A program made the translations under genes and the position numbers. A stretch of 64,000 nt of DNA from Escherichia coli (GTDB lineage Bacteria > Pseudomonadota > Gammaproteobacteria > Enterobacterales > Enterobacteriaceae). Below the pieces are notes generated by a model. The model saw only the letters and a list, made by a program, of their open reading frames with translations. It made no database searches and was not told the origin of the DNA. Location: the NCBI RefSeq assembly GCF_041248615.1, contig NZ_CP158426.1, one strand, 5' to 3'. This document shows, piece by piece, positions 20,158 to 63,843 of this stretch (position 1 is the stretch's first letter; each line of letters begins with the position of its first letter).

Positions 20158-20430
20158 ATGTCTCATACCATCCGTGATAAACAGAAACTGAAAGCGCGTG
20201 CCAGTAAGATTCAGGGCCAGGTCGTGGCGCTCAAGAAAATGCTCGACGAGCCGCACGAATGCGCTGCAGTTTTACAACAGATTGCTGCTATCCGTGGCGC
20301 GGTAAACGGTCTGATGCGGGAAGTGATTAAAGGTCATCTGACGGAACACATCGTTCACCAGGGGGATGAGCTAAAACGTGAAGAAGATCTGGATGTCGTT
20401 CTGAAGGTGCTGGATTCTTATATCAAATAA
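20158..20430 (+). CDS. rcnR: Ni/Co-responsive repressor RcnR (CsoR/RcnR family)
   Basis: 90 aa, [22 protein letters not shown]..., divergent from rcnA. Confidence 0.95.
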
Positions 20431-20519
20431 TTTATTAACGCTATTGTAAAACTGCCGTTTTTCCTCGTTTACAACGCGTGCGCTGGACATTACCATCCTC
20501 CTCTGCGATTTATCATCGC

Positions 20520-20599
20520 AACCAAACGACTCGGGGTGCCCTTCTGCGTGAAGGCTGAGAAATACCCGTATCACCTGATCTGGATAATGCCAGCGTAGG
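20520..20599 (+). repeat. attL: 80-bp direct repeat, a copy of the thiM TPP aptamer/thi-box lacking the 3' P1 strand and expression platform
   Basis: Base-for-base identical to 33185-33264. Flanking bases differ on both sides. Preceded by native rcnR-thiM intergenic sequence. Confidence 0.9.
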
Positions 20600-20684
20600 T
20601 TGCCAACATTCTGATTAGTATTCATGTGGTTACATTTCTTTTTGTCCGTGTGTAATGCACCTAATGTACAAAAAGAGCGTAAAC

Positions 20685-21986
20685 ATGAGGTACAAAACTC
20701 TTCCATACACGTTTCAAAGAAACGGTAATTACTATCTACAGATTCGGCTTTCGAATGGTCGGATGTATAAAAAATCACTTCTCACTGACAGCTATCGTGA
20801 AGTCTCTGCTTTGATGATTGGTGTTGCTCCGTACATTCCTTTTGTTAAATCATTAGCCATCACAATCCCGATGTTTGATGCCTTTGTTTCAAACCTGATT
20901 ATGTCAAAACTTAGGGCTGTAAAAGTTCCGCTGCTATCACATCAGTCGGTAATTACCCCTGCTACATTCGAGGAACCAGCGACACAAGCCGAACCGCAAA
21001 ACATGCTAACTCTTTCTGATGCGTGGGCTATGTATAAAGCGGAAAAGGGTAAAACATGGACAAAGTCGATCTCAAGGGCGAATGAGCGTTACATGGAAGT
21101 CTTGATGGTTGTCTTGGGAGAGACAACTGACGTAGTTGCGATTTCTAAGCAGGACATCAAGCAGGTGATGGAAGTTGTTGAGAATTTGCCTAAGCGTGTT
21201 GTCCAACCGTATCGCTCAATGAACATCCAGCAACTGATTGAATGTGATGATGTATCACCGAATGAGTTAGTAGGAGTGGAAGCCATTCATAAGCATCTCA
21301 AAATCTACAAATCGCTTTTCAAGACTTTTCTAACAGAAAACAAAGATATTTTGATTAAATCCCCAACTGATGGGGTAGTAGCAGCACCATCTAAAGCAAG
21401 GTTTGGAGCATACAGTTCGGCGGAGATGAAGAAGTTTGTAGAGTGGGCACTTAAGCAGCCAGATGGCTGGCAGAAGTGGATAACATTGTTGTTGGCATAC
21501 ACAGGAGCCAGAAGGGGAGAAATTGCCAAACTGGAAAAATCACAAATAAAATATGATGAGGATAGCCATCGGTATTATTTCCTGATTGCAGAAGGAGGGC
21601 AGGGGAAAACCGAAAATGCTACCCGACAAGTAGTGATACACCCTAAGTTGATCGAATGGGGTTTCATGGAATACGTTGATCGCCAGTGGAAAGAACGGAT
21701 TTTTTCAGAAGTGGCTGGTACAAACATGACGAAGATCGGTAAAGAATTTGCTGATGTGCGTGACCAGCTTGACATTCCGTACTTAGACGATTTTGGACAG
21801 CGGAGGCTTTTGCATAGCATTCGTCATTCTGTTTGCTCTACTGCGATGGCTGGATGGGTAAAGAACATCTTGCATCTGCAACAAACAGTAGGCCATGAGA
21901 AAAGTGGAGGGATCACTAAACGCTACTTACATACGTTCCCACTATCATCAATTTGTTATGTTATTGATGGGATTAGTTGGGTCTGA
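20685..21986 (+). CDS. int: Tyrosine site-specific integrase
   Basis: ORF 20655..21986, likely start MRYKT at 20685. Catalytic signature ARRGEIAKL (Arg), GKTENATR (Lys), HSIRHS (His-x-x-Arg), GHEKSGGITKRYLH (Tyr). Confidence 0.85.
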   Translation: MRYKTLPYTFQRNGNYYLQIRLSNGRMYKKSLLTDSYREVSALMIGVAPYIPFVKSLAITIPMFDAFVSNLIMSKLRAVKVPLLSHQSVITPATFEEPATQAEPQNMLTLSDAWAMYKAEKGKTWTKSISRANERYMEVLMVVLGETTDVVAISKQDIKQVMEVVENLPKRVVQPYRSMNIQQLIECDDVSPNELVGVEAIHKHLKIYKSLFKTFLTENKDILIKSPTDGVVAAPSKARFGAYSSAEMKKFVEWALKQPDGWQKWITLLLAYTGARRGEIAKLEKSQIKYDEDSHRYYFLIAEGGQGKTENATRQVVIHPKLIEWGFMEYVDRQWKERIFSEVAGTNMTKIGKEFADVRDQLDIPYLDDFGQRRLLHSIRHSVCSTAMAGWVKNILHLQQTVGHEKSGGITKRYLHTFPLSSICYVIDGISWV

Positions 21987-22203
21987 AACTGCTAAGAATG
22001 ATAGGAAAAGCTACTTAATGATCCTTAGTTTTGGATGAAATTGAAGATTACAAAGATCTTGAGCGAATAAGAGCGTTTTTTAATCAAAAAAGCCATAAAA
22101 ACTTTTCTTGACTGTATATTAACACAGTGCTTCTACTATGTAGAAGAAATCGACATGAAAAATTTGATATGGTAAATTTTATCCATGATAACAAAAAGGT
22201 ATT

Positions 22204-23106
22204 GTGGATATGTTACTACCAATACGAGTTCATAAACGATTTCTAACTTTATTTAAGACTTTGCAAATTGACGATTGCCCACCGCAATCAACTTTAAATA
22301 TTCATGTACTTAATATCGAAAGCAATGAATTTATATACTGTAAATTAGTTGAAGAATTACGTGACATAATAATTACTTATGTACATTCGAATAGAAGGCT
22401 TGAGGAGTTTAAGGAAAGTTATCCTTCGTATAGCCCTAAACCTTTTTTCGAAGCAATACAAAAATTTCGCAATTATACGTCAAACGAAGGTGAGTTAGGT
22501 GAACTGCTTTTATACGCTTTTCTTGAAACAGGACTAAATGCTCCGAAATTACTTTCCAAAATGCAATTGAAAACAGATTCTAATGATTACATTAAGGGTT
22601 CTGATGGTGTACATCTGTTAGAATTAGATGATGGTTATCAATTAATATTTGGAGAATCAAAGCTCTATGCCGATCTTTTAGAAGGTGCTCGAGAAGCGTT
22701 TGATTCTATTTTAGATTTTAAAAGTAATGGAATGGCATTTGAAAGAGGGCTGATAGATACACACGTTATAAATGAAATGGTTTCAGAAGAAGGTTATGAG
22801 AAAATAAAATCAATTCTTCTTCCTTCTTCTGGCGATGATGGGCCAGATCTTGATTTATCCTTTGGTATATTTCTTGGTTTTGAATTGAAAATAGATAGCT
22901 CACAGTTATCATTGAAAAACAAAGAGTTTAGAGATTGGGTTAATGAGTCCGTGAAACAACATGCTACTCGCGTGGTCAGTACGATACGAAGGAAAATTAT
23001 TAATCATAAATTATATGGTCACGAATTCCACATATATATAGTTCCTTTTACCGATATTGATGTTACACGAAAAAAATTAATTCATGAAATGCTAACAATT
23101 AAGTGA
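22204..23106 (+). CDS. hamA: HamA-like protein (DUF1837-type PD-(D/E)xK nuclease fold) of a Hachiman-type system
   Basis: 300 aa (GTG 22204 or ATG 22210). Motifs EGELGELLLYAFLE (~aa 95-108), GSDGVH (aa 132-137), GESK (aa 150-153). Overlaps the next gene by 4 nt. Confidence 0.7.
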   Translation: MDMLLPIRVHKRFLTLFKTLQIDDCPPQSTLNIHVLNIESNEFIYCKLVEELRDIIITYVHSNRRLEEFKESYPSYSPKPFFEAIQKFRNYTSNEGELGELLLYAFLETGLNAPKLLSKMQLKTDSNDYIKGSDGVHLLELDDGYQLIFGESKLYADLLEGAREAFDSILDFKSNGMAFERGLIDTHVINEMVSEEGYEKIKSILLPSSGDDGPDLDLSFGIFLGFELKIDSSQLSLKNKEFRDWVNESVKQHATRVVSTIRRKIINHKLYGHEFHIYIVPFTDIDVTRKKLIHEMLTIK

Positions 23107-25691
23107 ACACTATGAATGAATTAAATTCAAGTAAAAACATTCATTTGGCAGCTCGTCTTGCAGATGATGCTTTTGAAAGTGCTTATTTTAAAGAAATCAA
23201 TAAGTTTATAAGTGGTTTATACAATTACAGTTTATTTAACTGCGATTCAGATGTTAGTCTCTCCGAGAGTGATAACAATAAAATAGCACACGCTTTGCGT
23301 TTTGCAGATATATTTTCACATTCTTCAAAAGAAAATCATAGATCATGTGCATTTGAAATTATAAGTAGAATAGCCTTATTAAAAAAACATGATCCTTATT
23401 TTAAATTTATAGGTACTGCTGTTATTAATCGGCTTGGGGTTTATGCAGCAGAAAAACTCATATCAAAAGGGGTAAAATTACCCTTAGATAGAGAAGTTGA
23501 TTCTATTATTAAAAAATCAGTTCAGAAAACAGATGAAGATGGAGTATATTTCACTGATAAACAACATGAGTTATACAAACTTTTAAAAAGTAGCAAAACA
23601 ATTAGTTTTGCTGGTCCCACTTCGATGGGAAAGTCATTTGTTATTAATGCATACATTAAGGAAATAACTCTTAAAAAAGAGCTTAAAAATATAGCTTTAA
23701 TTGTTCCTACACGGGCTTTAATAAGCCAAAATGCACTTAAGTTAAAAATTGATATTGCATTGTATAAGAATGAAAGCCCTTATAAAGTTGTTACGACATC
23801 CTACATTATTAATGGTGATGAAAGTAAAAATAAAGGCTATATTTTTATTCTCACCCCAGAAAGGCTGGTTAGTCTCATAAGCACTATTCCTGGACTAATG
23901 ATTGATTATGTTTTTGTAGATGAAGCTCAAAAGTTAACAACAAAAAATGATTCGAGGAGTCTTGTTACTTATTCAGCTATAGAGCAAACAATTAGTAAAA
24001 ATCCTGAGGCAAGATTATTCTTCTCTTCACCTAATTTATCTAATCCTGAAATATTTAATATTTTGTTTGATAGAAAAGACGCTTCGGTATATAGAAATAC
24101 AGAAGGTGCAACTACTCAGAATATGTATTTTATTGATCTTTTAAATAGCAGCTTTAGCTATGTTAATACCGAGAAAAGGACGCTTGAAAAAATAGATGAG
24201 ATCTCTAATACTTACACGAATACAAATGATGTTATCTATAAATTAAATAATGGTAAAAGTAAAATAATTTATTGTGGGGGGATAGAAAGCACGCTTGAGA
24301 GAACACGTAGCTTTATCAATTATCTCAAAATTAATAAGAAAAAAAGAAAGCATTTAAATTTAGAAATATCTTCTGAGATAAGAAACTTTGTTCATGATAA
24401 CTATGAACTTGCAGAAGCCATCAACTATGGTGTTGCTTTCCACTTTGGAAACTTGCCTCAATCGATTCGAGATTTAATTGAGCATCATTTCAAAATAGGA
24501 AATATTGACTATCTATTCTGTACATCAACCCTACTTGAGGGAGTCAATTTACCTGCAAGATCCGTATTTATTCTTACGCATAAAAAAGGCCCCAGTCCAT
24601 TAGAGTCGGTTGATTTTTGGAATCTGGCTGGGAGAGCTGGGCGATTATCTATGGAATTGTCAGGGGATATTTTTTGTATTAGGGATGATAATAAGCTTTG
24701 GAATAAAAAAGCTGTTGATAATATCCTTCTGTCTGACAAAAATAACATTTCATTAAAGCCAAGCTTCTATATTGAAGACGAAAAAAGATTGAACGATTTA
24801 CACCATATAATTACGACTGGTAAAACAGGGAATATTAAAAATGCTGAGTTCCTTAGAACTTTAGGAGATATGATAAGAATAGACACTCTGAGGGATTCTA
24901 AAGAACTTCCTCTTATTAGTTATTTCCAAAGCAGTGGAAAATCAGAAATTTTGTTAAGTGCAGAAAAAAGCACTGAAAATATTACCATGCCAATGAATAT
25001 CCTTTTGGCAAATAGTCATATTGCGATTGATTCGCAGTATCATGCTTTTAAAAAAATAAAAAGCCTTACAGTTAAGGAACTGAAATTATCATGGCAGCCT
25101 ACATACGAAGAAATTAAAGAAAAATTGAATTTGATATTCGATATTTACCAAGTTGAAAAGTTTGCAACAGGTAGAGAACGTCTTTATTTAAATTCAATTC
25201 CATATTATGCAGTATTACTGTTTCAATGGATTCGTGGAAATAGTCTACAGGAAATTATCTCGGGGGCAATTGCTTATAGAAAGAACAAAAGTATATATAT
25301 TAAAAATACACCTGTTCTTTTTGACAGCGAAAACCCAGCTCATTTAACTGCATTAGTTAATGAAACTATAAAAGACATTGAGTTGCGTGTAGGTTACCAG
25401 TTACAAAATTATTTTTCACATTACTGTCAGCTTCTGAATTATGTGTTACAAGGAAATCCAGGGGCAAACTGGTCTCAGTTCATTGAGTTTGGCTCTAATG
25501 AGCCAATAGTATGGCACCTACAAATGATGGGCTTTTCAAGGGATAGTGCAGTTTTTCTCAAGAAGAATTTTTCAAAACATCTTAAACTTGATAATGAAAT
25601 GAATAAACTCATCATAATGGATAAGGAACTGATCAAGCGTTCTTTCAAAAAAGATGGACTACATTACTTAGAAATCCAATCGTTATTATAA
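23103..25691 (+). CDS. hamB: HamB-like SF2 helicase of a Hachiman-type system
   Basis: 862 aa (GTG 23103 overlapping the hamA TGA, or ATG 23112). Walker A GPTSMGKS (nt 23613-23636), motif II DEAQ (nt 23919-23930), motif VI-like AGRAGR. Confidence 0.75.
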   Translation: MNTMNELNSSKNIHLAARLADDAFESAYFKEINKFISGLYNYSLFNCDSDVSLSESDNNKIAHALRFADIFSHSSKENHRSCAFEIISRIALLKKHDPYFKFIGTAVINRLGVYAAEKLISKGVKLPLDREVDSIIKKSVQKTDEDGVYFTDKQHELYKLLKSSKTISFAGPTSMGKSFVINAYIKEITLKKELKNIALIVPTRALISQNALKLKIDIALYKNESPYKVVTTSYIINGDESKNKGYIFILTPERLVSLISTIPGLMIDYVFVDEAQKLTTKNDSRSLVTYSAIEQTISKNPEARLFFSSPNLSNPEIFNILFDRKDASVYRNTEGATTQNMYFIDLLNSSFSYVNTEKRTLEKIDEISNTYTNTNDVIYKLNNGKSKIIYCGGIESTLERTRSFINYLKINKKKRKHLNLEISSEIRNFVHDNYELAEAINYGVAFHFGNLPQSIRDLIEHHFKIGNIDYLFCTSTLLEGVNLPARSVFILTHKKGPSPLESVDFWNLAGRAGRLSMELSGDIFCIRDDNKLWNKKAVDNILLSDKNNISLKPSFYIEDEKRLNDLHHIITTGKTGNIKNAEFLRTLGDMIRIDTLRDSKELPLISYFQSSGKSEILLSAEKSTENITMPMNILLANSHIAIDSQYHAFKKIKSLTVKELKLSWQPTYEEIKEKLNLIFDIYQVEKFATGRERLYLNSIPYYAVLLFQWIRGNSLQEIISGAIAYRKNKSIYIKNTPVLFDSENPAHLTALVNETIKDIELRVGYQLQNYFSHYCQLLNYVLQGNPGANWSQFIEFGSNEPIVWHLQMMGFSRDSAVFLKKNFSKHLKLDNEMNKLIIMDKELIKRSFKKDGLHYLEIQSLL

Positions 25692-25771: not shown

Positions 25772-25795
25772 AGCGATTTAGTATGCTAAATCGCT
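25772..25795. terminator. Strong hairpin between the convergent hamB and recombinase genes
   Basis: 10-bp perfect stem AGCGATTTAG/CTAAATCGCT with a TATG loop. There is no clean U tract, so its function as a terminator is uncertain. Confidence 0.35.
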
Positions 25796-25999
25796 GCATA
25801 ACGAATCTGCTTCTAAATCTTGATTAAGTGTTTCGAACTGCCTTGATTGTTTATTGCTACACTTTATAATTAATCGCAACACACAAAACAATACAATGTA
25901 GGCAGTTGCACAGAATTAATTACAGGCACATTATGGATATCGAGAGGATTCGAACAGTTTTAAACTGCAAGCCCTTTGACTTTATCCCCTCCTACTATA

Positions 26000-26575
26000 T
26001 CAGCGTTTGATGCCGCTAATACTGGCAAGCATTTCTTTCTTCACACGAAAAACTGTAGCCCTGCCGCAATCACATAACTTTGCTATCTCGTCTGGTGTAT
26101 TCTTCCCGGCCTGTAACATATCGATAATCTTGTTATGTAGCTCTTTGTTCTTTTGCTTGCCCTTGTACTTCTTAGCCTCTTTAGCAAGAGCAATCCCCTC
26201 ATTGCGACGAGATGCGATCATACCCCGCTCAAATTCTGCAGCGGCTCCCATCATGGTTAGGATAAGGCGTGATTGTGGGGAATTATCAAAACTCATAGAG
26301 TTTGCAAGGAATTGAACAGTGATTCCACGAGCCACGAGGTTATCAATCATTTCCAGCAAATCGCGGGTATTACGTGCAAGGCGATCAATCGAGTGAGTAA
26401 CGAGCGTGTCACCTTCGCGGAGGTGTGAAAGCAGGTTCAACAATTCAGGTCTTTCGCTGGTGGACTTACCTGATTCTTTCTCTGCCACAATTTTGTCACA
26501 AACAGGTTCCAGCACTGCCAACTGACGCTCAAGATTTTGATCCTTTGTTGAGACTCTCGCGTAACCAAAAATCAT
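26000..26575 (-). CDS. Serine recombinase (resolvase/invertase family)
   Basis: 191 aa. N-terminal MIFGYARVSTKDQNLERQ (catalytic Ser) and a C-terminal HTH (TPDEIAKLCDCGRATVFRV). Confidence 0.88.
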   Translation of the reverse strand: MIFGYARVSTKDQNLERQLAVLEPVCDKIVAEKESGKSTSERPELLNLLSHLREGDTLVTHSIDRLARNTRDLLEMIDNLVARGITVQFLANSMSFDNSPQSRLILTMMGAAAEFERGMIASRRNEGIALAKEAKKYKGKQKNKELHNKIIDMLQAGKNTPDEIAKLCDCGRATVFRVKKEMLASISGIKR

Positions 26576-31028: not shown

Positions 31029-31370
31029 TCCAGTGTCTGGCCTTTCGTTGTTTTAGTTATTAGTCTTTTTGAGTTGCGACAACTGCAAGAGAATGTTTAT
31101 AAACAAGTGAAATAAGCAGTTTTACCGCCTCAAAAGCTACAGTCAGTTTCGTAATTATTTTCGAAAGCATCGTAAATTTCACTTCGCTATCTTCTATGCA
31201 AAAATTAGCAGCCTGAGGTATTTAATGATTGAGATGTGGCCTGTTGATAAGAGGGTTTGTATTGCTTGTTCTGCTCTTTGTTAATTTGTGACTTATTCCT
31301 TTCACAATGATCGGCTATGTTTGATAACTCTGTTAGGAAATCACCTATGGCTACCATATTGGATTTGCCC

Positions 31371-32276
31371 CTATATTTCCAGACACCTGTTATCACTTAA
31401 CCCATTACTGGCCTGCTGCCGCAGATATTCCCGTGGCGAGCGATAACCCAGTGCACTATGCGGATGCCATTCGTTATAATGCTCGAACGCCTCTGCAAGG
31501 TTCTTTGCTGCCGTTAACCCGTCTGGTTTAGGCATGATACTGATGTAGTCACGCTTTATCGTTTTCACGAAGCTCTCTGCTATGCCGTTACTCTCCGGAC
31601 TCCGCACCGCCGTGTTCTTCGGTTCAAGCCCCAATATCCGGGCAAACTGCCGTGTTTCATTAGCCCGGTAGCATGAACCATTATCCGTCAGCCACTCTAC
31701 TGGAGACGCCGGAAGCTCGTTGCCGAAGCGGCGTTCCACCGCTCCCAGCATGACGTCCTGTACTGTTTCACTGTCGAAGCCGCCCGTAGTGACTGCCCAG
31801 TGCAGTGCCTCACGGTCACAGCAGTCCAGCGCGAACGTGACTCGCAGTTTTTCTCCGTTATCACAGCGGAACTCGAACCCGTCAGAGCACCATCGTTGAT
31901 TGCTTTCTTTCACGGCCACTTTGCCAGTATGTGCCCGTTTCGATGGCGGTACAGCGGTTTTTCGCTCAAGCAACAGCGCATTCTGGCGCATGATCCGGTA
32001 AACACGTTTGGCATTGATCGCAGGCGTACCATCAAGTTCGGCCTGTCTGCGAAGCAGCGCCCATACCCGACGATAACCATACGTGGGCAGCTCTCCGATA
32101 ACATGGTGTATACGGAGAAGCACATCCGTATCATCTGAGTGACGGCTGCGGCGACCATCTTTCCAGTCATCGGTTCGTCTGAGAATTACGTGCAACTGCG
32201 CACGCGACACCCGGAGACAACGGCTGACTAAGCTTACTCCCCATCCCCGGGCAATAAGGGCGCGTGCGCTATCCAC
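31371..32276 (-). CDS. insD: IS2 transposase OrfB (InsD, DDE domain)
   Basis: 301-aa ORF overlapping orfA in the -1 frame, as in IS3-family elements. Confidence 0.92.
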
Positions 32277-32599
32277 TTTTTTGCACGCCCGTATTCAACG
32301 GCTTCTTTAAGGAGTTCATTTTCCATCGTTTTTTTGCCGAGCAGGCGCTGGAGTTCTTTAATCTGCTTCATGGCAGCAGCAAGTTCAGAGGCAGGAACGA
32401 CCTGCTCTCCTGCGGCCACAGCAGTAAGACTTCCCTCCTGGTATTGCTTGCGCCAGAGAAATAACTGGCTGGCTGCCACACCGTGTTGCCGGGCAACAAG
32501 GGAGACCTTCATTCCCGGTTCAAAACTCTGCTGAACAATAGCGATCTTTTCCTGTGTAGTACGCCGTCTGCGTTTCTCCGGTCCTAAGACATCAATCAT
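32234..32599 (-). CDS. insC: IS2 OrfA (InsC, HTH)
   Basis: Start at [22 protein letters not shown] (ATG 32599), 121 aa. Confidence 0.9.
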
Positions 32600-33184
32600 C
32601 TGCTCTCCAATGACTAGTCTAAAAACTAGTATTAAGACTATCACTTATTTAAGTGATATTGGTTGTCTGGAGATTCATGGGGCCAGTCTACATATAATCA
32701 TGTTCATCTTCTAATTCTTTAAATTTTAATAGAGAAATCTCTTCATAATATTCTTTCATTTTCATATAAATCACCTTTTATTTTTTTGTTGTTAACACAG
32801 GTTTTTTTCTGCACTACACATTATAGCACATAGAATTAATTCGTTTCATTTTCTGTCAATGAAATAGAGTAAAGATAAATGCTTTTATAAAGCACTTATC
32901 ACATCCGTTGCCTTGCTATATATAAAAAGTTCTCCAAACTATACTGGTGTATATTTTCCCCATCAGATACAGTTGTTTTTAAACATTACAATGTTGGATT
33001 CTTGGTTCCAAATAAATCGAGCAACTATTAGTGTTTCAAAATGAAGTTGGGAGCTATTCCTTAATTCGTATGAGGTACAAAATGGGGTACTCGGTGGGGT
33101 ACAGCGTGTATAAGTGACGTCACCACGGGTAAACTTGCATCGGCGAGCAACTTAACCTAAGCTGACAAAAATTAAGAGAAATGT

Positions 33185-33264
33185 AACCAAACGACTCGGG
33201 GTGCCCTTCTGCGTGAAGGCTGAGAAATACCCGTATCACCTGATCTGGATAATGCCAGCGTAGG
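33185..33264 (+). repeat. attR: 80-bp direct repeat (thi-box aptamer copy contiguous with the native thiM expression platform)
   Basis: Identical to 20520-20599. Confidence 0.9.
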
Positions 33265-33317
33265 GAAGTCACGGACCACCAGGTCATTGCTTCTTCACGT
33301 TATGGCAGGAGCAAACT
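33185..33317 (+). promoter_or_regulatory. thiM TPP riboswitch (aptamer plus SD-sequestering expression platform)
   Basis: Contains the thi-box CTGAGAAATACCCGTATCACCTGATCTGGATAATGCCAGCGTAGGGAAGTC. GGCAGGAGCAAACT then precedes the ATG of thiM. Confidence 0.88.
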
Positions 33318-34106
33318 ATGCAAGTCGACCTGCTGAGTTCCGCGCAATCTGCGCACGCGTTACACCTTTTTCACCAACATTCCCCTCTTGTGCACTGCAT
33401 GACCAACGATGTGGTGCAAACCTTTACTGCCAATACCTTGCTGGCGCTCGGTGCATCGCCAGCGATGGTTATCGAAACCGAAGAGGCCAGTCAGTTTGCG
33501 GCTATCGCCAGTGCGTTGCTGATTAACGTTGGCACGCTGACGCAGCCACGCGCACAGGCGATGCGTGCCGCCGTTGAACAGGCAAAACGCTCTCAAACAC
33601 CCTGGATGCTTGATCCAGTAGCGGTGGGTGCACTCGATTATCGCCGCCGTTTTTGTCTGGAACTTCTGTCTCATAAGCCAACCGCCATACGTGGTAATGC
33701 TTCGGAAATCATGGCATTAGCTGGCGTTGCTAATGGTGGACGGGGAGTGGATACCACTGACGCCGCAGCTAACGCGATACCCGCTGCACAAACACTGGCA
33801 CGGGAAACTGGCGCAATCGTCGTGGTCACTGGCGAGATGGATTATGTTACCGATGGACATCGTATCATTGGTATTCACGGTGGCGATCCGTTAATGACCA
33901 AAGTGGTAGGAACTGGCTGTGCATTATCGGCGGTTGTCGCTGCCTGTTGTGCGTTACCAGGCGATACGCTGGAAAATGTCGCATCTGCCTGTCACTGGAT
34001 GAAACAAGCCGGAGAACGCGCAGTCGCCAGTAGCGAGGGGCCAGGCAGTTTTGTTCCACATTTCCTTGATGCGCTCTGGCAATTGACGCCGGAGGTGCAG
34101 GCATGA
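33318..34106 (+). CDS. thiM: Hydroxyethylthiazole kinase
   Basis: 262 aa, [33 protein letters not shown]... Confidence 0.96.
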
Positions 34107-34903
34107 AACGAATTAACGCTCTGACGATTGCCGGTACTGATCCGAGTGGTGGTGCGGGGATTCAGGCCGATCTTAAAACCTTCTCGGCACTTGGCGCTTA
34201 TGGTTGCTCAGTGATTACTGCACTGGTGGCGCAAAATACCCGTGGCGTACAGTCGGTGTATCGCATTGAGCCTGATTTTGTCGCCGCCCAGCTCGATTCG
34301 GTGTTCAGCGATGTGCGAATCGATACCACTAAAATCGGTATGTTGGCGGAAACCGATATTGTTGAAGCGGTGGCAGAACGGTTGCAACGTTATCAGATCC
34401 AAAACGTGGTACTCGACACCGTTATGCTGGCAAAAAGCGGCGACCCGCTGCTTTCACCTTCGGCGGTTGCTACGCTGCGCAGTCGATTATTGCCACAGGT
34501 TTCATTAATAACGCCAAACTTGCCCGAAGCTGCTGCCTTGCTCGACGCGCCACACGCGCGCACCGAACAGGAAATGCTGGAACAAGGGCGATCGCTGTTG
34601 GCGATGGGCTGTGGCGCAGTGCTAATGAAAGGTGGTCATCTGGATGATGAGCAAAGCCCGGACTGGCTGTTTACTCGCGAGGGAGAACAACGGTTTACCG
34701 CACCGCGCATTATGACCAAAAACACCCACGGCACTGGTTGTACGCTCTCTGCGGCGTTGGCTGCACTACGCCCGCGCCATACAAACTGGGCTGACACCGT
34801 ACAGGAGGCAAAAAGCTGGCTTTCATCGGCGTTAGCCCAGGCCGACACGCTGGAAGTTGGTCACGGTATTGGTCCGGTTCACCACTTCCACGCCTGGTGG
34901 TGA
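34103..34903 (+). CDS. thiD: Hydroxymethylpyrimidine/phosphomethylpyrimidine kinase
   Basis: 266 aa, [27 protein letters not shown].... 4-nt overlap with thiM. Confidence 0.96.
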
Positions 34904-49453: not shown

Positions 49454-49540
49454 AAAAAATAAGCCCGTGTAAGGGAGATTACACAGGCTAAGGAGGTGGT
49501 TCCTGGTACAGCTAGCATTTTATGGGTTATGTTTTTCAGC
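49454..49540 (-). ncRNA. cyaR: CyaR (RyeE) Hfq-dependent sRNA
   Basis: The complement reads GCTGAAAAACATAACCCATAAAATGCTAGCTGTACCAGGAACCACCTCCTTAGCCTGTGTAATCTCCCTTACACGGGCTTATTTTTT. This matches my recollection of CyaR, including the terminator. Confidence 0.88.
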
Positions 49541-49574
49541 GAAACGGATGATAACCTTAATAAATGCAGCTGTA

Positions 49575-62859: not shown

Positions 62860-62999
62860 ACGGGAAAGCCCCTCCCGAGGAAGGGGCCTTAAATAAGGAA
62901 AGGGTCATGATGAAGCTACTCATCATCGTGGTGCTCTTAGTGATTAGCTACCCAGCATACTAAGACTACCAGGGCGGGGGAAACCCCGCTCTACCCTCA
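62860..62999 (-). ncRNA. sibB: Sib antitoxin sRNA, unit 1 (ends approximate)
   Basis: Minus-strand promoter TTGACA (63034-29), 17 nt, TACTTT (63011-06). Terminator GCCCCUUCCUCGGGAGGGGC plus a U-rich tail. Fully antisense to ibs. Confidence 0.65.
62907..62963 (+). CDS. ibsB: Type I toxin Ibs (18 aa, MMKLLIIVVLLVISYPAY)
   Basis: ATGATG start with AAGGAAAGGG upstream and a TAA stop. Matches the IbsB sequence as I remember it. Confidence 0.8.
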   Translation: MMKLLIIVVLLVISYPAY

Positions 63000-63187
63000 C
63001 TCCTGAAAGTATGCCTTCACGATAAGATTGTCAATCTGCAGGCTTTGCAGTCTGCGATCCTGCCAGCAAATATTCTTTGCGAGACGTTACGCAATAATCA
63101 CACTGGAAACTATTTTATCCGCAAGTCAGCGATAGACTGCATACAGGGCGAAAGGAGGTAAGCCGACGATTTCAGCGGGACGCTGAA

Positions 63188-63327
63188 ACGGGAAAGCCCC
63201 TCCCGAGGAAGGGGCCTTAAATAAGGAAAGGGTCATGATGAAGATACTCATCATCGTGGTGCTCTTAGTGATTAGCTACCCAGCATACTAAGACTACCAG
63301 GGCGGGGGAAACCCCGCTCTACCCTCA
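63188..63327 (-). ncRNA. Sib antitoxin sRNA, unit 2 (ends approximate)
   Basis: Same promoter and terminator elements as unit 1, shifted by 328 bp. Confidence 0.6.
63235..63291 (+). CDS. ibsB: Type I toxin Ibs (18 aa, MMKILIIVVLLVISYPAY)
   Basis: Second repeat unit. Differs from unit 1 by a single L4I change. Confidence 0.78.
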   Translation: MMKILIIVVLLVISYPAY

Positions 63328-63515
63328 CTCCTGAAAGTATGCCTTCACGATAAGATTGTCAATCCGCAGGCTTTGCAGTCTGCGATCCTGCCAGCAAATA
63401 TTCTTTGCGAGTCGTTACGCAATAATCACAGAGGAAACTATTTTGGTCACGCGTTAGCGATAGACTGCATTCAGGGCGAAAGGAGGTAAGCCGACGATTT
63501 CAGCGGGACGCTGAA

Positions 63516-63662
63516 ACGGGAAACCCTCTCCCGGAGAAGAGGGCTTTTAATAAGGAAAGGGTTATGATGAAGCACGTCATCATACTGGAGATACTCTTAG
63601 TGATTAGCTTCCAGGCTTACTAAGAACACCAGGGGGAGGGAGAAACCTCTCCCTAACCCTCA
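63516..63662 (-). ncRNA. sibA: Sib antitoxin sRNA, unit 3 (ends approximate)
   Basis: Promoter TTGACA (63697-92), 17 nt, TAATTT (63674-69). Terminator CCCUCUUCUCCGGGAGAGGG plus a U-rich tail. Confidence 0.6.
63564..63623 (+). CDS. ibsA: Type I toxin IbsA-like (19 aa, MMKHVIILEILLVISFQAY)
   Basis: Third repeat unit. Carries a Glu codon GAG at 63588-90 within the hydrophobic core. Confidence 0.7.
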   Translation: MMKHVIILEILLVISFQAY

Positions 63663-63843
63663 CTCCTGAAATTATGTCACTCCGCCCTTAGTGTCAATCG
63701 ACGGCTCTCCGTTCTTGCGAGGCGAATAGCAAAATTTTCTGCGCCGCCGGGCCTAATTCTGAAAGTTTCTTCGTTTGCTCTTATTTCATTATTGCAATCG
63801 GTATGATACCGGGCCTCAATAATTCTCTAAGAAAGGATTTCTT

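Follow-up and report, generated by a model that had tools for sequence, protein, structure and literature searches.

What becomes of an integrase gene, and of the host operon next to it, when a mobile element inserts into the riboswitch between an operon and its promoter? The question is raised by a 64,000-nucleotide stretch of Escherichia coli DNA (contig NZ_CP158426.1 of RefSeq assembly GCF_041248615.1; hereafter the window), in which a 12.6-kb insertion separates rcnB/rcnA (minus strand) and rcnR (plus strand) from thiM and thiD. A first-pass annotation of the window had proposed that the native thiM promoter, left with a truncated thiamine pyrophosphate (TPP) aptamer at the left attachment junction (attL), reads into the island's integrase gene, int, and that integrase expression could thereby be tied to thiM promoter activity and possibly to thiamine status. 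Our computational follow-up finds read-through from the thiM promoter plausible, a claim that we hold with moderate confidence given the anatomy of the junction and known precedents. Predicted RNA structure and comparison across the integrase family make it highly unlikely that int is tied to thiamine status.

A defence island within the thiM riboswitch

The insertion is bounded by a perfect 80-nt direct repeat (20520-20599, identical to 33185-33264; spacing 12,665 nt). The left copy ends in ...CAGCGTAGG and is followed by island sequence, TTGCCAAC..., and the right copy continues as GAAGTCACGG... into the native expression platform, the thiM Shine–Dalgarno (SD) sequence and the ATG at 33318. 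When the flanks were joined in silico (20158-20599 plus 33265-34106), the 1,284-bp product was colinear with the K-12 rcnR-thiM region without gaps at 97.3% identity, which identifies the sequence left of 20520 as the native rcnR-thiM intergenic region. The structural claims of the first-pass annotation thus stand: the left flank is contiguous with the rcnR side, the left repeat copy runs into island sequence while the 3' strand of aptamer helix P1 and the platform are retained at the right junction (attR), as borne out by the junction sequences and Rfam matches, and the two candidate int ATG codons (20655 and 20685) lie on the same strand, 56 and 86 nt past the repeat. The junctions and repeats mark region 20431-20700 as the attL end of an integrative defence island that inserts site-specifically, here precisely into the thiM TPP riboswitch (Table 1). 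The locus has an end-located recombinase, flanking repeats, an empty site, the same target in unrelated hosts and arm repeats, as tyrosine-integrase islands do. HxxR and carboxy-terminal Tyr motifs are visible in the int translation. Of its two possible starts, 20685 is favoured by the RefSeq annotation and by the family alignment, in which all subfamily A members (defined below) have ATG or TTG at that column; the in-frame ATG at 20655 would yield 443 aa.

The integrase belongs to a family that 221 of 5,426 complete E. coli genomes carry, with nucleotide identities of 74-100%, and the attL junction is present in 191 of these 221. Carrier strains include KE55, ATCC 8739 and B7A. The window's int and leader (20600-21990) recur at ≥99% nucleotide identity in 9 genomes, with human, quail and chicken meat among the listed sources, and the attL junction is also present in a Notomys isolate. 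Six E. coli loci that we retrieved (comparison loci are given L numbers) share one layout: rcnR, the thiM promoter, a truncated TPP element, int and variable defence cargo (GmrSD, TIR+NACHT, TIR or HNH/AIPR) on the left, then a serine recombinase, a small minus-strand gene, a full TPP element and thiM on the right. A scan with one genome per species added 32 loci from more than 15 other Enterobacterales genera (Leclercia, Enterobacter, Dryocola, Buttiauxella, Serratia, Silvania, Lelliottia, Atlantibacter, Pantoea, Erwinia, Klebsiella, Winslowiella, Franconibacter, Citrobacter, Trabulsiella and Mangrovibacter). In these, a TPP core lies about 90 nt upstream of int on the same strand whenever the int 5' end is intact, and the order TPP-thiM-thiD is kept whenever the far end is in range. 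Two integrase subfamilies with different leaders can be told apart, A (≥78% aa identity to the window's integrase) and B (about 65%). Among plasmid and phage records, no relative exceeded 42% aa identity and none carried the element. By its constant target and neighbourhood, this is a dedicated riboswitch-targeting integrase family, carried by small defence islands.

The repeat itself is longer than the site of recombination. Among loci with both ends and intact islands, the smallest blocks of attL/attR identity are 27 bp (L011) and 26 bp (L025), reading ACCTGATCTGGATAATGCCAGCGTAG(G), and we infer that crossover occurs within the shared P4/P5 block at 20573-20599. The 80-bp repeat was ruled out as the crossover itself, since other members share only 26-27 bp. 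In E. coli loci L004 and L006, the 5' half of the attR riboswitch is foreign, with leader TTCAATCTTCATGACTC and a P3 of CCCCATCAATGATGGGG in place of CCCTTCTGCGTGAAGGG (a compensated helix), and attL carries the E. coli version. The sequence left of GGCTGAGA in attR is therefore island-owned, and the exchange point lies to its right, past P3. By this comparison, the long 80-bp identity in the window is an island-borne surrogate identical to the E. coli sequence. In subfamily B the identity block abuts a clear dyad, GGATAATGCCAG-CGTAGTC-CTGGCGATTATCC, which points to the core-type sites and the overlap region; no core-type dyad could be defined in the window's subfamily A. The subfamily B dyad lies about 130-90 nt upstream of int (L021-L024, L029, L034 and others), next to a different P' arm.

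The stranded thiM promoter, the int leader and the aptamer fragment

At attL, the native thiM promoter points at int. This promoter (consensus 9/12) is the only consensus match in the intergenic region, is identical to that of the K-12 empty site and scores 10.2 bits by position weight matrix (PWM), above the 95th percentile of the background, for which the top score in each 140 nt of the window was taken (median 5.1 bits). Bastet et al. (2017; PMC5499598) number the thiM AUG 151-153 and the ribosome-binding-site G 142, with an in vitro transcript starting CUGC, which places +1 at 20503 (CTGC, 20503-20506), 7 nt past the -10 element. The promoter and the first 17 transcript nucleotides lie left of the repeat and are kept at attL; in all, the promoter and the first ~97 transcript nucleotides, comprising the aptamer without its P1 3' strand, are stranded there facing int. 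Promoter and int are co-oriented, with 188 nt from the one to the int ATG.

Little in the intervening DNA is predicted to stop or replace this transcription. No intrinsic terminator was predicted on the plus strand between 20000 and 22300, and hairpins ahead of a conserved run of five Ts reach only 0 to -2.5 kcal/mol. A stable GGCCGAAAUUCGGCC hairpin of the majority subtype was considered as a terminator and rejected; no run of Us follows it, and the window's subtype does not have it. Between the att core and int, the best sigma-70-like match in the window scored 5.8 bits, near the background median, and the best matches in 10 other variants scored 4.5-6.8 bits at positions that are not conserved. 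Precedent comes from ICEKp1, an integrative and conjugative element (ICE) whose int is expressed from a host tRNA-Asn promoter when integrated and from a promoter at the element's 3' end when excised (Liu et al., Nucleic Acids Research 2026, PMC13023037). Its int-proximal flank has a weak promoter, and stem-loops in the 5' untranslated region (UTR) attenuate expression; ICEclc and ICEEc1 behave alike (PMC13023037). Because no terminator is predicted, no internal promoter exceeds background and these elements set a precedent, the part of the earlier proposal in which the thiM promoter reads into int holds up as plausible. As a separate observation, no terminator is predicted at 20431-20467 either, so that Ni/Co-induced rcnR transcription could read toward the aptamer and, in carriers, int.

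The same stretch bears on a different account, in which int is driven only by a weak or regulated promoter of its own in the P' arm, as in KplE1 intS or P4 int. The thiM transcript would then be stopped by Rho, by bound Int or accessory proteins or by RNA decay, and the juxtaposition would mean nothing for regulation. The int promoter of tRNA-associated islands commonly overlaps attL and is autoregulated (PMC2951348), a TTGACT-17-TAATGC match sits at a conserved position in most subfamily A leaders, and operators or roadblocks might be formed by the arm-type sites that follow immediately. Yet that match scores at most 4.6 bits, below the background median, and its -10 element is not conserved in L002, L011 and L013; the window's best internal match stands at a non-conserved position; and in ICEKp1, ICEclc and ICEEc1 it was upstream host promoters or 3'-end promoters that dominated over the weak int-proximal flank (PMC13023037). 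We regard an exclusive P'-arm promoter as possible though rather unlikely.

Read-through from the thiM promoter would deliver a transcript whose next segment is predicted to have structure of its own. The first-pass annotation had passed over three things: that the gap between repeat and int is probably a P' arm, that it encodes a predicted hairpin occluding the ribosome-binding site, and that thiMD receives from the island a 5' half-aptamer and a candidate promoter. In an alignment of 19-20 leaders, subfamily A shares two direct repeats, (A/G)GGTACAAAA, an SD-like AAGRG and the T5 run, which is invariant in 19/19 leaders (20639-20643; alignment A1, columns 45-49). The motif GRGGTACAR has three exact copies in the 64 kb, all at island ends (20687, 33072 and 33096), with a near-exact copy at 33084. 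We infer from this placement that the repeats are candidate arm-type Int sites and that 20600-20700 is the P' arm. A site for integration host factor was also considered. The majority subtype TATCATGAGATTG fits WATCAANNNNTTR at 12/13 positions, and the window at 11/13 without the usual A/T-rich flank; we do not claim it.

Within this arm, the segment 20618-20693 is predicted to fold into a conserved stem-loop (-22.7 kcal/mol, z = -3.3) that buries the SD-like AAGAG of int and the AUG at 20685. CAUG at 20623-20626 pairs with the start-codon CAUG at 20684-20687 and U5 pairs with A5, at pairing probabilities of about 1. The stem-loop recurs in divergent variants, including L013, whose apical sequence differs. 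On the alignment, 94% of cells are paired, compared with 45-68% in slid-partner controls, and five pairs show double changes, a number matched by 2 of 500 shuffles. The T5 run takes part twice, pairing as RNA with the A5 of the first arm-type repeat and lying, as DNA, within an inverted arm-type repeat; at 20636-20648, the DNA of the hairpin's 5' arm repeats the arm-type motif in inverted orientation.

Could the stranded aptamer still sense TPP and modulate read-through or translation of int, so that excision follows thiamine status? The fragment has some of the necessary parts. It keeps the P1 5' strand, and both sensor arms (P2/P3 with its CUGAGA junction, and P4/P5) are intact in 20520-20599, with arms and junction nucleotides identical to those at attR. 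It scores above the Rfam gathering threshold for the TPP family (RF00059), by a small margin (58.0 versus 54.3 bits; the attR copy, with P1 formed, scores 71.2), and an active thiM promoter would transcribe it from the native start. Against this, the P1 3' strand is island sequence, so that GAAGUC is replaced by UUGCCA and three of the five model pairs are non-canonical. The replacement lacks complementarity to the 5' strand and varies between family members, and in none of the aligned variants was a rebuilt P1 found. An AGUC 8 nt further on in L002 and L005, present in no other subtype, was rejected as chance. The known outputs of the riboswitch are elsewhere: thiM is controlled by TPP through SD sequestration and Rho-dependent termination in codons 20-34 (PMC5499598). 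Both the SD-sequestering platform and the Rho site lie at attR, and attL has no expression platform. The predicted accessibility of the int SD and AUG is independent of the aptamer (mean unpaired probability 0.09 versus 0.11 with the aptamer arms enforced or not), the int leader of the family is unchanged whichever 5' half-aptamer lies upstream, and attL aptamers decay freely in the older islands L018, L020 and L039. For the thiM promoter itself, we know of no regulation by thiamine. We therefore think it very improbable that the stranded aptamer senses TPP on behalf of int. The most specific form of the idea, in which the fragment binds TPP and modulates the int hairpin or the access of Rho or RNase so that Int and excision follow thiamine, would mean that a mobile element has taken over half of a host riboswitch for sensing of its own; we give it hardly any credence.

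The attL fragment has a practical consequence for annotation. RefSeq's annotation pipeline (PGAP) labels it 'TPP riboswitch' in the window (20522-20617) and in L001 (15092-15187), L002 (19900-19995), L004 (17886-17980), L005 (17900-17995) and L006 (17886-17981), because such fragments, at 58-60 bits, still exceed the Rfam threshold of 54.3. A carrier genome thus seems to have two thiM riboswitches, one of them directly before an integrase gene. With the label present in most of the carrier genomes examined, it will mislead riboswitch censuses.

The island right end and a proposed exchange of promoters

Insertion moves thiMD away from its promoter, and the island appears to supply a substitute. 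The candidate island promoter near attR is oriented toward the aptamer and thiMD, and in the excised circle it would point at int. Its hexamers conform to a TTGnnn-17-TAnnnT pattern conserved at right ends across the family, in which the spacer varies, and its -10 element ends 21 nt before the repeat, where the native thiM -10 ends 23 nt before it. The nearest island gene to thiMD points the opposite way. In BL21(DE3) (L041; NC_012971.2, 2083131-2087659) only the right part of the island is kept: int, attL, rcnRAB, yehA-D and the native thiM promoter are missing through an IS1-associated deletion, IS1A abuts a truncated yehE-like gene, and only the island right end and a chimeric riboswitch stand upstream of thiMD. 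E. coli B does not depend on vitamin B1. Mutants of it that do have been described, and the authors attribute them to probable deletions reaching thiM (PMC5487053). Across genomes, searches detect the riboswitch in 5,424 and the native promoter segment of 89 bp in 5,010. The conserved hexamers, the BL21(DE3) deletion, the B-strain mutants and these counts together suggest that the island right end drives thiMD after integration and that BL21(DE3) relies on it. A literature search for maps of transcription start sites in BL21 found none.

The right end also carries its own 5' half-aptamer, which rebuilds a full and sometimes chimeric riboswitch before thiMD. Chimeras occur in L004 (31543-31639) and L006 (28853-28950), and L009, L012 and L018 have comparable ones; the P1 5' strand, P2 and P3 come from the island, and the host contributes P4/P5, the P1 3' strand and the platform. 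In L004 the chimera reaches 73.6 bits, compared with 71.2 for the native riboswitch, and has a perfect 5-bp P1 and compensatory P3 changes. Its score and perfect P1 argue that the surrogate is under selection to work. Separately, a palindrome, GCTTGC-N4-GCAAGC, lies over the candidate -35 element (33133-33150). It is seen at the right ends of L002, L004, L006 and L010. Most sister islands have it in perfect form and the window's version (CTTGCATCGGCGAGCAAC) is degenerate; it may serve the divergent small helix-turn-helix (HTH) gene as an operator.

Taken together, these features are best explained, in our view and with moderate confidence in the whole, by a reciprocal exchange of promoters of the ICEKp1 kind. 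While the island is integrated, transcripts from the thiM promoter would run on into int and give a low, constitutive, TPP-blind supply of int mRNA. The leader hairpin would hold down translation, as would, probably, the binding of Int to its own arm sites. Once the island is integrated, thiMD would depend on the right-end promoter, which in the circular excised form would transcribe int.

Several points weigh against this explanation. Co-transcription of the thiM leader and int is read from sequence; Rho-dependent termination within the 180-nt untranslated leader is possible, as is an activator-dependent or alternative-sigma promoter in the P' arm, where the weak TTGACT-17-TAATGC match keeps its position in most variants. 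The hairpin statistics were counted on the same sequences from which the structure was derived, and the central helix (helix 2) is near-invariant and also forms an inverted arm-type repeat, so that its conservation could reflect binding of protein to DNA instead of RNA structure. The 218-nt leader as a whole (20503-20720) folds no better than shuffles (z = -1.3); this fold was rejected, its minimum-free-energy structure mis-pairing the aptamer, which leaves the local 20618-20693 hairpin as the one segment of note. At 6.5 bits, against the background median of 5.1, the candidate island promoter has a low PWM score. Finally, a putative accessory gene beside attR is broken by an insertion sequence (IS), and the element may have lost excision.

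This last point leads to the view that the junction is a relic, the island being fixed and immobile and int expression without consequence. The IS3-family element breaks a 74-aa open reading frame (ORF) next to the right end (25772-25996 in KE55, L001), in the position held by an HTH_73 gene in sister islands, and the window island may not excise if this ORF encodes a directionality factor. No excisionase was identified, and decayed copies exist in L020, L037-L039 and BL21. Countering this, int is full-length and the 80-bp repeats are identical, int and leader are kept at ≥99% identity in the 9 genomes of varied sources described above, the otherwise identical KE55 island does not have the IS (alignment of the window with L001), and cargo has turned over while the backbone was conserved, which suggests that the family was active recently. 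We consider a mere relic improbable.

Relation to known systems, and other features of the island

The proposed exchange is, by analogy, a variant of two known themes, promoter switching in ICEs and target-restoring integration at tRNA, tmRNA and dusA genes. As in ICEKp1, ICEclc and ICEEc1, an end-located int is co-oriented with a host promoter with no terminator (here, none predicted) between them after integration; promoter activity in the int flank is slight (here by PWM), a promoter (here a candidate) lies at the opposite end, and the int 5' UTR is structured. Unlike in those elements, the host partner is a riboswitch-controlled mRNA leader and not a tRNA gene; insertion into a 5' UTR costs the host operon its promoter, so that it must take the element's and the exchange becomes reciprocal; the leader hairpin is predicted to resemble an occluder of the ribosome-binding site, not a terminator; and the element is a small non-conjugative defence island. 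With KplE1 intS (Panis et al. 2010, PMC2951348), our locus shares a recombination arm between core and int and repeats that overlap the int initiation region. It differs in that no convincing int promoter is present in the arm and autoregulation is suggested by site positions only. Like tRNA and tmRNA islands and the dusA 5'-end integrases (PMC4482086), the element uses a conserved, dyad-symmetric target that encodes RNA or the 5' end of a gene, and a surrogate of the displaced part keeps the target working while a truncated copy remains at the other junction. Here, unlike there, the surrogate combines a candidate promoter with the 5' half of an aptamer, and natural chimeras can arise. The new features are a riboswitch aptamer as target, the proposed reciprocal promoter exchange and natural chimeric riboswitches.

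The target itself has been catalogued, as list entries only. TIGER/Islander entries include 'Eco824.15.TPP_RNA' and 'Kox2.11.TPP_RNA' (Mageeney et al. 2020, PMC7192596), and Hochhauser et al. (2023, PMC10121019) give 'rcnR-thiM' as a defence location, classed there without an associated mobile element. These catalogue islands share the target by name, and their identity with the present integrase family is assumed from the names. Fomenkov et al. note a B-strain island next to thiM. In the open-access literature we found no paper that goes beyond such lists on thiM/TPP-riboswitch integration, the junction, the integrase family, promoter exchange or chimeras. If read-through holds, the rule that a host promoter drives the integrated int would extend from tRNA-targeting conjugative elements to defence islands and to a riboswitch target, and would gain a reciprocal form in which the host operon runs on a promoter and half-aptamer supplied by the element. 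The exchange would also explain the apparent expression of thiMD without its native promoter in BL21 and other B strains, and the natural chimeric TPP riboswitches are ready-made domain-swap experiments. Thiamine sensing, the idea that gave this junction its appeal, is by itself unlikely.

Table 1. Features at the thiM island and its junctions, in window coordinates.
Feature	Position	Strand	Basis or remark
rcnR	20158-20430	+	Final host gene left of the island; ORF list and RefSeq annotation of the identical KE55 locus
Native thiM promoter	-35 TTTACA 20468-20473; 17 nt; -10 TACCAT 20491-20496; +1 ~20503	+	Consensus 9/12
attL repeat copy, 3'-truncated TPP aptamer	20520-20599	+	RefSeq label 'TPP riboswitch'
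Minimal att core, aptamer P4/P5 hairpin	20573-20599	+	Sole block shared by attL and attR in every intact-island member
P' arm / int 5' leader, 85 nt (candidate)	20600-20684	+	Family alignments; PWM scan
Conserved predicted stem-loop, 20622-20645 pairing with 20668-20688	20618-20693	+	RNAalifold consensus
Arm-type repeat 1 (candidate), AATGTACAAAAAG	20663-20675	+	Conserved across genera
int, tyrosine recombinase, 433 aa	20685-21986	+	Pfam Phage_integrase, E = 3.4e-7; RefSeq start
Arm-type repeat 2 (candidate), GAGGTACAAAAC, overlapping the int start codon	20687-20698	+	Conserved across genera
HamA, Hachiman defence system cargo	22204-23106	+	Pfam HamA, E = 1.2e-62
HamB helicase, Hachiman cargo	23103-25691	+	Pfam DEAD, Helicase_C, ResIII
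Serine recombinase (resolvase family)	26000-26575	-	Pfam Resolvase, E = 2.5e-36; tblastn map
IS3-family insertion, 1,328 bp	31360-32687	-	Pfam rve, HTH_Tnp_1; 9-bp overlap of flanks
P arm (candidate), three direct arm-type repeats GAGGTACAA, GGGGTACTC, GGGGTACAG	33072-33104	+	Three kept at family right ends
Candidate island promoter TTGCAT-17-TAAGCT	33135-33163	+	Best PWM match in region, 6.5 bits
attR, complete TPP riboswitch aptamer (repeat 33185-33264), then native platform	33185-33283	+	Rfam 71.2 bits
thiM	33318-34106	+	12.7 kb from native promoter after insertion
thiD	34103-34903	+	12.7 kb from native promoter after insertion

Behind int, the slot that holds the Hachiman genes in the window is occupied by GmrSD, TIR+NACHT or TIR genes in other islands. 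The serine recombinase stands just past this variable slot in most islands, with equivalents in L002-L009, L013, L014, L026, L033 and L035, and its conservation suggests a second recombination system, maybe for the exchange of cargo. The rest of the island past this gene comprises hypothetical genes and another helicase; the IS3-family insertion near the right end is presumably IS2-like.

Islands also occur in tandem or nested at one site. L012 and L023 lie on the same Enterobacter nematophilus contig with their int genes 13.5 kb apart, and further remnants are present in L026 (6079-6486) and L036 (7317-7622). At such sites the right end of one island, often of the other subfamily, stands before the 'attL' of the next, and the resulting right-end/core/left-end joints mimic attP. 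Elsewhere in the window, Rfam matches at 1258-1331, 49457-49542 and 62892-63697 correspond to OrzO-P, CyaR and three tandem Sib antitoxin RNAs, which are unrelated to the island.

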